Source: Candidatus Wukongarchaeum yapensis (GTDB lineage: Archaea > Asgardarchaeota > Wukongarchaeia > Wukongarchaeales > Wukongarchaeaceae). Taken from it: a DNA stretch of 6,125 bases. The notes under the pieces are model-generated. The model saw only the letters and a program-made list of their open reading frames with translations, made no database searches and was not told where the DNA came from. The position numbers were made by a program, and so were the translations under genes. The stretch spans positions 1 through 6,125 of the forward strand of contig JAEOSI010000142.1 in NCBI GenBank assembly GCA_016840425.1, given 5' to 3'. Positions 2 to 6,125 of this stretch are shown here, piece after piece. Position 1 is the first letter of the stretch. Each line of letters starts with the position of its first letter.

Positions 2-741
2 TTACTGCCTTTGCTAGCCCTTTTGATAACATTAAGCATTATTCCATCGGCACGGGCAACAGATACACGAGAACTGGAACCGGTTGCTGATTCATACGTT
101 AACATCGACCATCCAGACACTAATTACGGTAACTATTCTTGGCTATCTCTTGAGAGCCACTATATGATGGATGAACTTTCATACAATAAATTTGACTTGT
201 CGATCCTTCCAGAAGACGCTGTGATAGAGAAAGTGACGCTATATTTGCACGTAGGTTGGCTTAGCGACCCTGAAGAAGTCATAGTTTGCAATTCTGGTAC
301 AGATTGGTCGGAAATGGAAATAACGTGGAACAATAGACCCGGTTATGAACAAACACCTACTGATATAGTCTACGTAAGTTATGGTGAAAAGTGGTATTCT
401 TAGGATGTGACGGCAGACATTACAACGAATAAGGCTTACTTTTGGGCAATTCTCTTCGACTTACCGACTATACATGGTTGGCCTGATATGGACTTTGACT
501 CATCAGCAGAATGGACGAAGGCTTAAAACCGTACTTGGCCATCGAAGACTCGTATCTTGGAGTTTTAGGTTTTTCGCCTAGCATTTTCACATCGTTAGTA
601 GTGATAGGCGCAATAGTAGTAGTTTTTGCAATGGTGTTTGCGGAAAAACCGTCAGCAGGCCGTTTGAAGTTCGATATTTTGATTTGTGTATTAAAGGCGC
701 AAAAATTATGCGGGAAGAAACGAACTCAAACAAAAATGTAA
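2..741 (+). pseudogene. Disrupted secreted/membrane-anchored DNRLRE-domain (CBM96-like) surface protein; 5' end lies outside the window
   Basis: The frame is open from position 2 (LLPLLALLITLSIIPSARA, signal-peptide-like). Family motifs follow: ADSYV..HPDTNYG, SY.KFDLSILP..AVIEKVTLYL, DWSEMEITWNNRP. TAG at 401-403 interrupts WYS*DVT, where the family usually has W. The frame continues to DFDSSAEW and stops at TAA 524-526. The closing motif KPYLAIE and a hydrophobic anchor (SIFTSLVVIGAIVVVFAMVF) are in a different frame (511-741). Confidence 0.75.
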
Positions 742-1054
742 AAAAACAGAGAAAAAGGAAAATGGTGAGCCTTATAAAAATGCGGTTAGATATTGGATAA
801 ATAAAATAAATAAGGTTGAGAAAACCTCGAATTTTAAGCCTCAAGAAGCTTTAGGATTTTTAACCAGTTCAAGCAGTAGAGGGTTATTTGTAGTAGTAAT
901 TTTGTGGATAAGCGAAACGAATAATTGGCCTAGAAATATCGTGATACCTGTCATAGTGATAATCGTTCTAATTTTTCCTTTTTTGGAACTTTTTTTAATA
1001 GATTTAAGGAGAAAGGGAAGGAGGCAGTATGAGGAGTTCACGAATACGGTCTGA
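708..1054 (+). pseudogene. Frameshifted (or recoded) small two-TM membrane protein of about 115 aa, not in the ORF track
   Basis: ATG at 708 reads MREETNSNKNVKK and stops at 798-800. The -1 frame is open from 695 to TGA at 1052-1054 without an ATG. Joining at the A7 run (740-746) gives MREETNSNKNVKKTEKKENGEPYKNAVRYWINKINKVEKTSNFKPQEALGFLTSSSSRGLFVVVILWISETNNWPRNIVIPVIVIIVLIFPFLELFLIDLRRKGRRQYEEFTNTV: charged N-terminus, two hydrophobic segments, basic tail. Confidence 0.5.
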
Positions 1055-2101
1055 TGGAAGCCCTGCTTCTATGCCTAACGCAATAGCTCTAAGGTTTCTA
1101 ATCTCGAAATAGACTAAGTTATAGTAACCAGCGATCATTCCAAGGTGTAAAGGTGAAAGTTTGAACTGTTCAATGCTTTTTTCCAGAACCATGCGTTTCA
1201 AGTTATGCTCTAAAGCAAAAAAGCTTCCACTCTCAGCATAACCTCCTCGGAAAGCCTCTATGTAAGGCACATAATCACGGATTTTTAAAAGAAATTGAAA
1301 GGCGTCATCTAAGCTTTCAGAAAGGATAACCTCCTCTAATAAGCTTTCAGAAACGTTGTAATAAATAGGGATTAAATATCGTTTTATATCTTTTAAGTCT
1401 ATACCAAGGCTCTTACAACGGAAAATGGTTACTATGTTTTGAGCATCAATTTCTGAACCAACGAGTATGCTAACCCTTTCTCTTTCACTTTTACCCAGCT
1501 TTTGAACGTATTCCCATAGAATAGGGAACACGAAATAATCAATTGCAGTTTCCCATTCTACAATCTCTGAAGCTTCAAGTAATCCTTTTTTATAAACCTC
1601 TCTTAAGGAAGGATAATATTTGCGAGCGTTTATTTTTATAACCTCTAGAAACTCTTCAAAAGAAGTAGCACTAGTAATCCTAGAAAGAACTTCCTGAGTA
1701 AAAATGCCGACAGGAATTACCGAGGATAAAACTTCTTCTGGATCTATTTTACTGAGAAATCCTCGGATAACGGCTTTCAAAGTCTCGGCTTCAAATTTTG
1801 TCAAGAACTGGTCTAAAAAGTCTCTGACTATGCCTGTAGAAACTTTCATTATTTGCAAAACACTTGAGAAGAAATGTTGGGATAGGGCGCTCTCAATGGA
1901 GTTAGCAGATAATTTATCTGCTTCAATTTTTAGGAGCTCTTCGCGATAAGGAGTAATATCTAAGAAGGAAACAAGTTCTCCAAGGGAACGCATCTCAGCT
2001 AAACTACGCAGATCCCAAGGAGATAATAATTTTGCCTTCCTAACTGCAATTTTAGAAAGGGTGTAACCATGACTAATTAGGTAACTAAACGAACTTGGCA
2101 T
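1004..2101 (-). CDS. atpC: A/V-type ATP synthase subunit C (homolog of V0 subunit d)
   Basis: 365 aa ORF. N-terminal GYTLSKIAVRKAKLL...LGELVSFLDITPY, central KFEAETLKAVIRG and DAQNIVTIFRCKSLG, and C-terminal EIRNLRAIALGIEAGLPSDRIRELLI are typical of AtpC/NtpC. It lies downstream of atpI-atpK and has an SD-like GGAGTGG 6 nt before the ATG. Confidence 0.93.
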   Translation of the reverse strand: MPSSFSYLISHGYTLSKIAVRKAKLLSPWDLRSLAEMRSLGELVSFLDITPYREELLKIEADKLSANSIESALSQHFFSSVLQIMKVSTGIVRDFLDQFLTKFEAETLKAVIRGFLSKIDPEEVLSSVIPVGIFTQEVLSRITSATSFEEFLEVIKINARKYYPSLREVYKKGLLEASEIVEWETAIDYFVFPILWEYVQKLGKSERERVSILVGSEIDAQNIVTIFRCKSLGIDLKDIKRYLIPIYYNVSESLLEEVILSESLDDAFQFLLKIRDYVPYIEAFRGGYAESGSFFALEHNLKRMVLEKSIEQFKLSPLHLGMIAGYYNLVYFEIRNLRAIALGIEAGLPSDRIRELLILPPSLSP

Positions 2102-2195: not shown

Positions 2196-2678
2196 TTATG
2201 GCAAAGAAGAAACCATTAGGAAACTTATGATTAAGCCGTAAATTGCTAGTGCTTCGCTAAGAACCACCGGAATCAAACTCATAACGAATAGGTCAGGGTC
2301 TTCTGCTGTAGCTTTAGCGTTGCTACTACCAGCATATCCGATAGCTATACCCGCAAAAAGTGCAGCAAACCCCATAGTTAACCCAGCCCACATCAGGGCA
2401 GGAGCACCGTTTTTAAATTCCTCGGAAGCGACATCATCAGGAAAGTATCCAGTATACCATGAGAGCCCTAAGAAAGCTATTATGAGGCCATATATTCCAA
2501 GTGCTTCAGCTAAGACAGTGCTGATTATCATTTTCGACGATTGCTCTTTTCTCTCGGTCATAGAGCCGCCAATTGAGGGGGATGAAAGCCCGATACCAAA
2601 AGCTGCTCCAGCTAAACTTAAAAATATGGCTGCACTAATGCCTACAGCTCCTTGAACAATCGGATCACCAAACACCAT
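2196..2678 (-). CDS. atpK: A/V-type ATP synthase proteolipid subunit K/c, duplicated four-TM form
   Basis: 160 aa with four hydrophobic helices in two hairpin repeats: VLAE58ALGIYGLII and VLSE142ALAIYGLII. Gly/Ala-rich helices 1 and 3. Located between atpI and atpC. Confidence 0.96.
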   Translation of the reverse strand: MVFGDPIVQGAVGISAAIFLSLAGAAFGIGLSSPSIGGSMTERKEQSSKMIISTVLAEALGIYGLIIAFLGLSWYTGYFPDDVASEEFKNGAPALMWAGLTMGFAALFAGIAIGYAGSSNAKATAEDPDLFVMSLIPVVLSEALAIYGLIISFLMVSSLP

Positions 2679-2684
2679 ATTTAA

Positions 2685-2693
2685 CCAACTCCT
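2685..2693 (-). promoter_or_regulatory. Shine-Dalgarno site of atpK
   Basis: Minus strand reads AGGAGTTGG-TTAAAT-ATG(2678). Confidence 0.65.
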
Positions 2694-2750
2694 ACTTAAT
2701 TATTCATTACATATACCATTTTTTTGATTACTTTGAAATCAATAAATTAG

Positions 2751-4955
2751 TTACTTAATTGCGGTAAATTCACGCTTAATAGTAAAGGGTTCATATTTGT
2801 ATCCATCAAAATTCAAACCCAATTTGCTGAAAAACTCGACCCACTGTAACCTGAGGCTGTGCAAGAGCGAAACCAAGGTTTCCAGCACGATGACTAGGAT
2901 GTTTCCGATGAGGAGGATTGGGACGCTTACAGGGGTTATTCCTTCTCCAGCCATTTCTATGAAAACAGCCATGAGTGTGATGTGGGCAAGGTTTAAAGCG
3001 AAAAGCCGTATATAACTTGCGGTGTTCCCAATACTACTTAGAGTCCCTTCAACAGCCTCTATAGCAGAATGACCTAAAGCAATTTTAGCCATTGCAGCAT
3101 CGCGATATAAGAGGATTTCTGCTATTCCTACGCCAAAAAACATCCCTAAGAGGCTAAGTATAGCAACATAAAACAATGGGGTGCCCGTTAAAATATTCAT
3201 GAAGGTATTAATAGCTCCTTCATGATCTTTATCAAAAAGCTCCCAATATCCTTCAAGATCCACAAGAGACCAGAGAATTAAAACCCCTAAAACTCCAAAA
3301 GTACTGGCATAAAAGACGAGCCAGCTAATGGAACCCACGACTTCTGCAAACTCGCCCTGTTTAATCTTATTATAAACATTTAACACAAGGCCGATCAATA
3401 TATGAATGACTCCTATGACAATAGCAAGTTTAATTTTAAACTTGTTAAATTGTGTTTCATCATGTTCTACCAGATGAAACATCTTTTCGCTTAGCATGTA
3501 ACGCATTAGTGGAAAATGCTTTTTAGTACTGGGTATTTTTTCGGTGAGATGATATCCAAAAATTTCGCCGAAAAAGAAACCGAAAAATATAGAAAAGATT
3601 CCGCAAAGAATAATAGCCTCTGCACCATTAAAGATCATTTTACCTATATCGCCCTTAATTTTCTTCGTTTTTCTAACATGTAGGGCCCATAAACCAACGA
3701 GTAAAAGAATAAGACCATGGCCTACATCAGGAAACATTATGCCAAAAAATATGGGGAAAGATAGTGCGACGAAAATACCAGGATTGATCTCGCGATGGGA
3801 GGGTACACCATAAGCATTAACGATTCCTTGAAAGGGTTGTATCATAGAAGGGAACTTGAAGTTGGAAGGAGGGGGGTCATTTTCGCCTTCATCATGACCA
3901 TGTTTTCCAGGATTGTTAGAAGAAGAAACGCTTTTTTCTTCTTTTTGAGAGTGGTTTTTATGCTTGGAAAAACCATTCCCTTTTAAAGCGATCATGGTAA
4001 CAGTGCCATAGGTGATTTCTTCAATCGATTTCTTTAAATCATCAAGGTTTTCTTCGGGAACCCAACCTTCGATCATTAAAGTTTTTTCTGTGCGGCCAAA
4101 CTTTTCCCTGCCTTCAGCTTTAATCCTTTCGATTTCTACAGCTTCTTTTAAAACGCACAGTTCTTTTCCTTTTTCCTTTGCTATTGATTCTAATGAAGCT
4201 TCAAGCTCCATGAGACGTTTTTCATCTTCTTTAAGCTTCTTTTCTATTTCTGGTAAAACTTTGTTAGGATCTGCATCAAACTCGTCTACAGGTTTTAGTT
4301 CTTGAAAATCAAAAAGGGAAAGGTTTTTCTGCACAATTCCTTTAAAAGGGGATAAAGAACTAATAAGAACGACTTGTCTTTCAGCAAATTCTTTCCCTTT
4401 TAGGAGGAGGATGTTGTTATAAGTGTCTTTACTTAATTTCTTTTCTAATTCTGGAAGTAAACGTGAGGGAGCTGTTCCGAAAAAAACTGCTAACATGGAA
4501 GTAGAACGAATTTCATAAGCAGTTATTTTAAAAGAGAGAAGGGCTTCATAAACGCGTTTAAGTTTGCTTAAACGTTCAGATTCTTCCTTAAGCGAATTGA
4601 TATTGGAAATGATTTTTTCAGTTTCCTTTTTAATTTTAGTAACCCTCTCTGCGAGATGATCAATCATTTGTTTTGGAGGTAAACGCTCAAAAACTTCACA
4701 AGAATCAACTATAACACTTTCTTCGTCCATGGCTAGGAGATCAAACGTATTTTTAACGTCTTTAAGGATTTCATTGGCTCTTCTTAAAGCATAAAATTCT
4801 TCCTTAGGCCTAACTTCGCCTTTATAAAGGCTAAGCTTTTTTCGTAGATCTGAAAGGTGTAAAACACCTTTTGCGGAGAGCATGTCGACAACATCTTCAA
4901 CATATTTTTCCAGCACTAATAGTTGGATTTTTACCATTGGTTCGGCGTATAACAT
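2751..4955 (-). CDS. atpI: A/V-type ATP synthase subunit I (subunit a)
   Basis: 734 aa. Soluble coiled-coil N-half with IEGWVP, then PFQGIVNAYGVPSHREINP, FPIFFGIMFPDVGHG, the essential-Arg motif NTASYIRLFALNLAH (Arg codon 3006-3008) and C-terminal HSLRLQWVEFFSK...GYKYEPF. Confidence 0.97.
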   Translation of the reverse strand: MLYAEPMVKIQLLVLEKYVEDVVDMLSAKGVLHLSDLRKKLSLYKGEVRPKEEFYALRRANEILKDVKNTFDLLAMDEESVIVDSCEVFERLPPKQMIDHLAERVTKIKKETEKIISNINSLKEESERLSKLKRVYEALLSFKITAYEIRSTSMLAVFFGTAPSRLLPELEKKLSKDTYNNILLLKGKEFAERQVVLISSLSPFKGIVQKNLSLFDFQELKPVDEFDADPNKVLPEIEKKLKEDEKRLMELEASLESIAKEKGKELCVLKEAVEIERIKAEGREKFGRTEKTLMIEGWVPEENLDDLKKSIEEITYGTVTMIALKGNGFSKHKNHSQKEEKSVSSSNNPGKHGHDEGENDPPPSNFKFPSMIQPFQGIVNAYGVPSHREINPGIFVALSFPIFFGIMFPDVGHGLILLLVGLWALHVRKTKKIKGDIGKMIFNGAEAIILCGIFSIFFGFFFGEIFGYHLTEKIPSTKKHFPLMRYMLSEKMFHLVEHDETQFNKFKIKLAIVIGVIHILIGLVLNVYNKIKQGEFAEVVGSISWLVFYASTFGVLGVLILWSLVDLEGYWELFDKDHEGAINTFMNILTGTPLFYVAILSLLGMFFGVGIAEILLYRDAAMAKIALGHSAIEAVEGTLSSIGNTASYIRLFALNLAHITLMAVFIEMAGEGITPVSVPILLIGNILVIVLETLVSLLHSLRLQWVEFFSKLGLNFDGYKYEPFTIKREFTAIK

Positions 4956-4960
4956 TTGGA

Positions 4961-4966
4961 CACCTC
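4961..4966 (-). promoter_or_regulatory. Shine-Dalgarno site of atpI
   Basis: Minus strand reads GAGGTG-TCCAA-ATG(4955), an archaeal-type SD. Confidence 0.8.
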
Positions 4967-4990
4967 ATCTCGCCTAGGAACAGATTTAGG

Positions 4991-5013
4991 GGCTTAGTTA
5001 AAGCCTTTTTGAC
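4991..5013 (-). promoter_or_regulatory. Candidate BRE/TATA promoter of the atpI-K-C unit, overlapped by a short inverted repeat
   Basis: Minus strand reads GTCAAAAAGGC-TTTAACTAAGCC: a purine run then a TTTAA box about 45 nt upstream of the ATG. GGCTT-N5-AAGCC (4991-5005) is an inverted repeat. Other AT-rich boxes upstream are equally possible. Confidence 0.3.
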
Positions 5014-5186
5014 AAAATGGGGATGGGAACAATCTATTATAATTGCTTTTATTTGACATATATCTATTTTACCGGTATAAAGGATGAATCTTTTTAGAAT
5101 AGTGTAAAACACTATTTTTAATATTTATGGATAACCATTCTGAGTATAAAAAATAGAAATACAAATATTGATTAAGAAAAATTGAT

Positions 5187-5219
5187 AAACGCGATCAAGA
5201 ATAAAACGCTCAAGAATAA
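5187..5219 (+). repeat. Imperfect tandem duplication just upstream of the AtpZ-like gene
   Basis: AAACGCGATCAAGAATA (5187-5203) is followed directly by AAACGCTCAAGAATA (5204-5218). TCAAGAATAA is exact at 5195-5204 and 5210-5219. Confidence 0.7.
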
Positions 5220-5237
5220 TTTAAAAGAGTGATAAAA

Positions 5238-5570
5238 ATGGGCGAAAACGAAGAAAACAAAGAAGAAACTTCTGGTGAAAGTATTATCGATAAAGAAGTT
5301 ATGGCAGCAATAAAAAGAAAAACGGAACTAAGGGAAGAAGAACAAAGAACAAGTAGGTTTATGGAAAGACCAGGAAGAGAGATATCGGATGCCCTTTATT
5401 ATGGTACGAGTATACCTATATTGTCGGTAGTTGGAGCGCTTATAGGGTGGTATTTAACTCGGGATTCGAGCGCAACTTTAAAAGTTTTAGGCGTCGCAGG
5501 CGGAGCCATTCTTGGACTATTATGGGGATTATTTGAAATAATCAGAAAAGAACAGAAAAAAAGCTACTAA
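5238..5570 (+). CDS. AtpZ/AtpI-like (ATPase_gene1-type) two-TM membrane protein, about 110 aa
   Basis: Acidic/charged N-terminus, then helix GTSIPILSVVGALIGWYL, a short loop, helix VLGVAGGAILGLLWGLFEII and a basic tail RKEQKK. The Gly spacing resembles the AtpZ family, and the gene is flanked by ATPase genes. ATG 5238 is preferred over GTG 5229 because GAGTGA (5227-5232) fits as its SD. Confidence 0.65.
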   Translation: MGENEENKEETSGESIIDKEVMAAIKRKTELREEEQRTSRFMERPGREISDALYYGTSIPILSVVGALIGWYLTRDSSATLKVLGVAGGAILGLLWGLFEIIRKEQKKSY

Positions 5571-5693
5571 AAATGAAGAAGGAAAAGTCCAGGATAGTTT
5601 TTAATAGAGATAAAATTGCGGCTAAACTTGTTATTTAACACTTTTTTAAATTCCTGATCTCTGCGGATTTTTTGATTTATAGTAACTGCGGGA

Positions 5694-5716
5694 GGGGAAT
5701 ATTTCCCTGTTTTTTG
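5694..5716 (+). terminator. Possible terminator for the plus-strand transcript
   Basis: GGGGAA-TAT-TTCCCT short hairpin (5694-5708) followed by GTTTTTT. Confidence 0.3.
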
Positions 5717-5813
5717 GGTTTTTATTCGCGATTTTCTGAGCAGTTATGAATTGAAAAAAAAACAGTTTTTGGAATTTTAAAGACTAATAAAATTGTTTTT
5801 TGTGGACCATTAT

Positions 5814-5862
5814 AAAAAAGTTAGAGGAAGGATCCGAGGCGGTTGTAAGAAGCTCGAATCCT
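5814..5862 (-). terminator. Hairpin plus U-tract downstream of the second proteolipid gene
   Basis: Minus-strand RNA AGGAUUCGAG-N14-CUCGGAUCCU (5862-5829) pairs 10/10 with one G-U wobble; on the plus strand this would be a C-A mismatch. Followed by UCCUCUAAC-UUUUUU (5819-5814). It starts 84 nt after the stop codon. Confidence 0.6.
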
Positions 5863-5945
5863 AGAACATAAATAAAATATAATAAAGGTTCGGAAAAGAT
5901 TGGTTATTTTAGCCACTTAGATGAGATCGAACAACAGCGTAGCGA

Positions 5946-6125
5946 TTACCCGATGGAAATTGTACCGAACAACAGAATAGCGATGACTAGACCGTAAATA
6001 GCAATAGCTTCCATCATAACGATGAAGATCATGGATTTACCGAAAACTTCTGGTTTTTCTGTTATAGCTCCAATTGCCGCAGCAGAAGCATTACCCATTC
6101 CGACACCAGCACCTAGACCAGCAAG
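5946..6125 (-). CDS. atpK: Second A/V-type ATP synthase proteolipid subunit K/c, C-terminal 59 aa (5' truncated by the window edge; absent from the ORF track)
   Basis: Translation from 6125: LAGLGAGVGMGNASAAAIGAITEKPEVFGKSMIFIVMMEAIAIYGLVIAILLFGTISIG*, TAA at 5948-5946. It has the GxGxGxG helix, the polar EKPE loop and the ion-binding E-A-I-A-I-Y-G motif. Confidence 0.95.
   Translation of the reverse strand, partial: LAGLGAGVGMGNASAAAIGAITEKPEVFGKSMIFIVMMEAIAIYGLVIAILLFGTISIG

Follow-up and report, generated by a model that had tools for sequence, protein, structure and literature searches.

The DNA analysed here, hereafter the window, is a stretch of 6,125 nucleotides from Candidatus Wukongarchaeum yapensis that makes up an entire contig (C146) of its genome bin (G000; 2.16 Mb in 277 contigs, 92% complete, 3.3% contamination). 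It carries genes for the membrane part of an A/V-type ATPase, among them two genes for different proteolipids. An original prediction, made from the window alone, had proposed that these two proteolipids might assemble into one mixed rotor ring on a single motor. We designate the stator subunit I, the proteolipid K and the socket subunit C, and number them by gene set: set 1 comprises I1-K1-C1 and set 2 comprises I2-C2-K2 (Table 1). The presence of a four-helix proteolipid of 160 aa (K1) and of a second, divergent one (K2) is borne out: with the PF00137 profile (cut-off 24 bits), K1 scored 109 bits over two domains and the piece of K2 contained in the window 65 bits, and K2 is 37–43% identical to either hairpin of K1, with which it has an EAxxIYG motif in common. 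The two genes are on the same strand, as predicted, with 3.27 kb between them. They also lie in separate units, divided by a plus-strand open reading frame (ORF) and by a hairpin followed by a T-run.

The window ends within K2, and we followed the locus to the right, as the original prediction had advised. The 3' end of contig C142 of the same bin and the reverse complement of the right end of the window overlap by 144 bp and are identical over this length; overlaps of this size also link other contigs of the G000 assembly. The end of C142 carries atpI2 (717 aa), atpC2 (374 aa) and then the first 52 codons of K2, which after joining is a protein of 111 aa with an N-terminal hydrophobic extension. 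The join is confirmed by a contiguous public contig of 26,485 bp (L031), in which the genes follow in the order I2(717)-C2(369)-K2(111)-[110 aa, opposite strand]-I1(734)-K1(160)-C1(365). This layout recurs in a congeneric genome (G001; record name 'Candidatus Hodarchaeota archaeon DZ1B.339') and in contigs whose I1 proteins are 87% and 79% identical to that of the window. The tandem locus is thus conserved, and the window covers its right half. Metagenomes of marine sediments and mangroves contain this genus in abundance.

Table 1. Features of the window (positions in nucleotides from its first letter).
Feature	Position	Strand	Basis
atpC1, 365-aa set-1 subunit C (V0 d in eukaryotes)	1004..2101	-	PF01992, E 1.3e-59
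atpK1, 160-aa set-1 proteolipid with four helices in two hairpins	2196..2678	-	two PF00137 domains, E 1.3e-31
atpI1, 734-aa set-1 stator, subunit I (V0 a in eukaryotes)	2751..4955	-	PF01496, E 4.8e-65
Intergenic region, A+T-rich, from which atpI1 and the plus-strand ORF diverge	4956..5228	.	sequence; G+C ~0.32
ORF for a small two-helix membrane protein, 113 codons	5229..5570	+	conserved in the locus
Stem-loop (6-bp G+C stem) followed by a T-run, 3' of the plus-strand ORF	5690..5717	+	
T9 run (A9 on the plus strand), ~185 nt past the atpK2 stop	5754..5762	-	sequence
atpK2, last 59 codons, single-hairpin proteolipid of set 2	5946..6125	-	PF00137, E 6e-18

Copy numbers of the ATPase subunits were obtained by six-frame profile searches across the whole G000 bin. 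A (contig C158), B (C120), D (C189), E (C208) and F (C177) are each encoded once, solitary on five separate contigs and with no ATPase genes as neighbours, and a search with PF00006 gave two matches, one A and one B. There are two I genes (C142 and C146), three C genes (C142, C146 and C138) and four proteolipid genes. The additional copies comprise (i) a C3-K3 cassette (contig C138:3619-5095), in which K3 lies 3' of C3 and the products are 78% (C3/C2) and 81% (K3/K2) identical to their set-2 counterparts, and (ii) K4, a second four-helix proteolipid gene that stands alone at C194:1130-1609 and whose product is 76% identical to K1. The original prediction had assumed a single atpI, atpC and A/B set, which is correct for A/B but not for atpI and atpC. 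It had further taken a second atpI, atpC and A/B beside the right-hand proteolipid as the sign of two independent complete ATPases. An atpI and an atpC are found there, directly in front of K2, and an A/B pair is not; as A, B, D, E and F are single-copy genes, two independent complete ATPases are unsupported as well.

We propose that set 2 (I2-C2-K2) and set 1 (I1-K1-C1), between which lie the opposite-strand gene and terminator-like signals, specify two complete A/V-type membrane sectors of ancient divergence, and that a stator (a/I), a rotor ring and a socket for the ring (d/C) would be supplied separately by each. Because each set has an I and a C of its own, each proteolipid most likely forms the ring of its own sector, and because A, B, D, E and F are single, we infer that one A1 head takes either sector as its partner. 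With modest confidence, we therefore favour two alternative, separately transcribed membrane sectors that share one A1 head. The choice of sector would be made by separate transcription or by assembly, which would resemble the eukaryotic V-ATPases, where one V1 works with different a, d and c isoforms; the two sectors would dock to the same head and would presumably differ in physiology. The 'switchable rings' that the original prediction had offered as its second option come closest to this arrangement, except that the part to be switched would be a whole membrane sector, with stator, ring and socket, and not the ring alone.

The key residues are intact in both sets. The carboxylate Glu is kept in every hairpin of the four proteolipids; K1 has it in both of its hairpins (VLAEALGIYG and VLSEALAIYG), so that its duplication gives no ground for a halved ion/ATP ratio. 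The Ala that follows each hairpin carboxylate suggests, from what is known of Na+ motifs, that both rings are coupled to H+. The essential Arg, His and Glu are kept in I1 (motifs SYIRLFALNLAH and VLETL) and in I2 (motifs SYARILALLMVH and PLEGL), and these motifs align with the yeast-type LRLWALSLAH and MEGL. I1 and I2 are 28% identical, and C1 and C2 26%. Both sets are under purifying selection, as the ratios of non-synonymous to synonymous substitution rates (dN/dS) between G000 and G001 are 0.22 for I2, 0.21 for C2 and 0.21 for K2, and 0.33 for I1, 0.25 for K1 and 0.34 for C1. A predicted complex of C1 with the sole D of G000 scored 0.87, compared to 0.00 for the best of three controls, with at least 95% of the contacts common to three runs and a partner predicted local distance difference test (pLDDT) value of 84; this score level is attained by 51 of 78 solved complexes and by 2 of 108 mismatched pairs. 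On this model C1 still resembles a D-binding socket, although D-d complexes are already among the solved structures and the pass may reflect that likeness only. Contigs from one metatranscriptomic library overlap parts of C1, K1, I1 and K2, which is a weak hint of expression; none of them covers the 113-codon ORF or the non-coding parts, and such missing cover is no evidence.

The two sets have different relatives. I2 is 30–39% identical over its full length to other Asgard I subunits and clusters with them in the tree (support 0.99), C2 and C3 cluster with the C subunits of Asgard I-C-K loci (support 0.99), and the order I-C-K with a single-hairpin K is found in several Asgard genomes. Judged from these trees and gene orders, set 2 is the lineage's own, vertically inherited Asgard-type sector. 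For K1, the closest relatives outside the genus are K subunits, 47–49% identical, of genomes labelled Thermoproteota or Bathyarchaeia, and these genes sit in E-I-K-C clusters that have the I-K-C order of set 1. C1 clusters with the C subunits of E-I-K-C operons (support 0.90) and the N-hairpin of K1 with their K subunits (approximate likelihood-ratio test, aLRT, 100), and I1 scores slightly above I2 with the I subunits of these clusters. Set 1 was probably acquired from, or has common ancestry with, the E-I-K-C operons of Bathyarchaeia-like Thermoproteota. The four-helix double-Glu K is the usual proteolipid of many Bathyarchaeia, Methanomethylicia and Culexarchaeia, and is also normal in Asgard genomes labelled Promethearchaeota, Baldr-, Odin-, Thor- and Hodarchaeota. 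As a protein, K1 is thus nothing out of the ordinary; its occurrence alongside a second full sector is. Archaeal A1AO operons with a four-helix K are arranged as E-I-K-C or as I-K facing C-D-B-A-F (Bathyarchaeia, Methanomethylicia, Culexarchaeia and several Asgard classes), and their membrane sector is normally the only one, located beside E and the head genes. Set 1 is like them in its I-K-C order, its double-Glu K (35–49% identity) and its type of C; unlike them, it has no E/H or head genes as neighbours and lies behind a second, Asgard-type sector.

Several observations weigh against two sectors sharing one head: (i) I1 lies on a long branch in the tree; (ii) the dN/dS values of set 1 (0.25–0.34) are a little above those of set 2 (0.21–0.22); (iii) no subunit H was identified; (iv) the contigs of the RNA library may stem from DNA; (v) the extra C3-K3 cassette and the stand-alone K4 make the system more complex than 'two sectors'; (vi) G002, a genome from the same order, combines the vertical A-B pair and a K-I-C cluster with a second, unrelated full operon (I-E-C-F-A-B-D); and (vii) G000 is a metagenome-assembled genome of 277 contigs at 92% completeness, so that a second head operon could sit on an unbinned contig. 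The divergence of I1 and the slightly higher dN/dS of set 1 would fit an arrangement in which only one sector works with the head and the other, most likely the laterally derived set 1, is a decaying relic or a head-less V0-only assembly, for example an ion-conducting one; the set-1 unit also lacks the E and H genes that go with its relatives. We consider this unlikely, as the set-1 genes are all intact in at least five sequence-distinct contigs, with I1 identities down to 79%, their dN/dS remains within the range given above, I1 has kept its Arg, His and Glu and K1 both of its Glu residues, C1 was modelled onto the sole D with a score far above that of the controls, and, as a weak point, RNA-library contigs match C1, K1 and I1.

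The incompleteness of the bin and the additional operon of G002 would rather favour two complete and independent ATPases, the second head (A/B/D/E/F) being present in the organism and missing from the incomplete bins. Full double sets do occur in Asgard archaea. Among the 268 Asgard genomes at least 85% complete, nearly all have one atpC, whereas two were found in most of the searched genomes (at least 85% complete) of one genus, g28 of family f4. In three g28 genomes, G055 (e.g. contigs C1 and C13), G045 and G060, there are two A/B pairs, two I and two C genes; these make two complete A-type ATPases, and a full second ATPase is therefore detectable when it is present. G000 is like g28 in having more than one atpC and atpI, and unlike it in that neither G000 (92% complete) nor G001 (87%) has a second A/B pair, the only PF00006 gene of G001 being B-sized. 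The window's genus has additional I, C and K genes without additional head genes, and no head genes were found beside the set-1 cluster in five independent contigs. In G002, the bin of which carries 9% contamination, no K1-type gene was found, and its extra operon is unrelated, with an I that is 21% identical to I1 and a C that forms the outgroup of the C tree. One head with two sectors is also seen outside the Asgard archaea. A Bathyarchaeia-labelled contig (L149, CAYWPD010000006.1) has E-F-A-B-D-I-K(149 aa) facing C(373), K(105), C(354) and I(560); its 105-aa K is K2-like, with I-C-K on the other strand plus a further C, its two C subunits fall in two different C clades, and only one A and one B were found genome-wide. 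This is an independent parallel, with two membrane sectors of two types and one head. Given these comparisons, a second head hidden from the bins seems to us quite unlikely. Two I genes were also observed in L107 (Culexmicrobium), and head and stalk genes are scattered, as in G000, in an Asgard genome that is 100% complete (G314).

The co-assembly of K1 and K2 in one ring on one motor, as in eukaryotic V0 or in the hybrid rotor of Acetobacterium woodii, would suit the single A/B/D/E/F set, the position of the two genes on one strand and the carboxylate and EAxxIYG motif kept in both proteins, but is very unlikely. A mixed ring would require one a and one d, whereas stator I and socket C are encoded separately in the unit of each proteolipid, and these partners are only 26–28% identical between the units. 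In addition, an opposite-strand gene and terminator-like signals lie between the units, and their evolutionary origins differ. In known mixed rings (yeast V0, A. woodii), different c genes share one a subunit, and solved V/A-type enzymes contain one a/I and one d/C subunit per complex. At the present locus K1 and K2 each have an atpI and an atpC in line with them, instead of one a and one d serving different proteolipids, which points to two distinct membrane sectors. In the F-type hybrid rotor of A. woodii, a four-helix c1 and two-helix c2/c3 occupy one ring, and as in that bacterium, genes for four-helix and two-helix proteolipids are close together in one organism. However, all c genes of A. 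woodii are in one operon with a single a subunit and its c1 has lost a site, whereas each G000 proteolipid has an I and a C of its own and none has lost a site.

If heteromeric rings are formed at all, the mixing of close paralogues (K1/K4 or K2/K3) is more plausible here than that of K1 and K2. That the extra copies are an artefact of the bin or of strain mixture was considered and rejected: the C3-K3 cassette is also present in G001 (93% and 89% identical), and a K4-type gene is found elsewhere, solitary on a 62-kb contig of another assembly. C3-K3 and K4 could serve as spare or mixing rotor parts. More tentatively, we suggest an extended version of the shared head, in which a single A1 head encoded by dispersed genes would work on two interchangeable, separately transcribed sectors, to which C3-K3 and K4 may add, with K1/K4 or K2/K3 possibly forming mixed rings; the eukaryotic pattern of one V1 with several V0 sets would then have a precedent in prokaryotes.

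The components described here belong to known families; their arrangement, with two full sectors, spare rotor cassettes and one dispersed head, was not found in the literature searched. Prokaryotic rotary ATPases normally come as one operon for one enzyme, and the combination of a single head with more than one membrane sector counts as a trait of eukaryotic V-ATPases, with their organelle-specific a isoforms and reversible V1-V0 association. A conserved Asgard locus with two a + c + d sets and one head would, if our reading is right, represent such modularity in archaea, and the Bathyarchaeia-labelled contig suggests that the design arose more than once. It would also offer a concrete system in which to ask how a single head recognises sockets and stators as unlike as these. 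In the literature searched we found no description of two membrane sectors with one head in archaea or of Asgard proteolipid paralogues, which is not proof of absence.

We compared the locus with eukaryotic V-ATPases, in which one V1 is combined with isoforms of a (Vph1/Stv1, a1-a4), d (d1/d2) and c (c, c', c''). As in these enzymes, G000 has several a, d and c paralogues and a single set of head genes, which are dispersed and not in an operon; K1 has four helices, and I1 carries a eukaryote-like TASY.RL.AL.LAH motif. In contrast to them, the paralogues of G000 are arranged in two co-linear a + c + d cassettes, which implies matched sets and not one mixed ring, and K1 has both carboxylates where eukaryotic c has lost the first. 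The two sets, 26–28% identical and of different origin, are also unlike recent isoforms. Among solved structures, the best matches of K1 are eukaryotic V0 c'' (74 bits) and c (69 bits), and after its own genus and relatives of 38–48% identity, its next-best matches are again eukaryotic V0 c and c''. The phylogeny with eukaryotes that had been called for was carried out on single hairpins, with FastTree and with IQ-TREE -fast (aLRT supports, wider archaeal sampling), and gave a stable result for one hairpin only. The C-terminal hairpins of eukaryotes (IFSEALALYGL) fall inside the E-I-K-C group of C-hairpins (VLSEALA[IL]YGL), with aLRT values of 83, 82 and 98. The eukaryotic N-hairpins grouped with those of the K1 family in the first tree (0.98), but shifted with the wider archaeal sampling to NtpK-type N-hairpins, which are also devoid of the Glu (aLRT 75). 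As their position changes with sampling, we make no claim of a duplication common to K1-type proteins and eukaryotic c; only the affinity of the C-hairpin to eukaryotic V0 c appears stable. I1 grouped weakly with eukaryotic a subunits (0.70 and 0.28, on long branches), which we treat as a lead only. On these trees, the C-terminal hairpins of the four-helix K family would be the closest archaeal relatives of eukaryotic V0 c found here, and the four-helix double-Glu K family of Asgard archaea and of the Thaum-, Aig-, Cren- and Korarchaeota (TACK) group is highlighted as one to consider when the eukaryotic V0 proteolipid is traced to its origin.

The small opposite-strand gene between the two sets is itself a conserved part of the locus. 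Its product, the C-terminus of which reads ...KKSY, gave no match in a Pfam search, and has a 92% identical counterpart at the same position in G001; a gene of 110–112 aa is found at the matching place in three further relatives (five contigs in all), and a weak homologue adjoins the K-I-C cluster of G002 (L096:4301-4651). Among Atlas clusters, those of AtpZ/AtpI (PF09527; 0.82) come nearest, which is a lead only; the ORF possibly encodes an AtpZ/AtpI-like assembly factor. The divergent region upstream is presumed to hold the promoters of both this ORF and atpI1, and the minus-strand T9 run is a candidate archaeal terminator that would close the set-2 unit. Overall, four terminator-like sites were found in the window, compared to 0.9 expected; a sigma-70 promoter scan gave two sites versus 3.7 expected, a scan that is not meaningful for archaea. 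Within I1, a hydrophilic low-complexity insert rich in Lys, His, Ser, Asn and Pro (residues ~320–370, window 3850-4000) sits between the cytoplasmic N-terminal domain and the membrane domain. At the left end of the window, positions 2-403 (plus strand) hold a 5'-truncated ORF that starts like a signal peptide and includes a CBM96 carbohydrate-binding module (PF24517, E 4e-18).

Finally, the search of Asgard genomes brought up giant proteolipid ORFs (up to ~1149 aa), in which many hairpins are fused, in genomes labelled Hermodarchaeota, Promethearchaeota and Odinarchaeota. One example is G012:C36:61925-65308; ORFs of 999–1147 aa were found in L130, L139, L154, L155, L157, L164 and L166, and ORFs of 535–644 aa in L141, L148, L162, L167, L170 and L172. 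These fused proteolipids recall the single-polypeptide ring of Methanopyrus kandleri.

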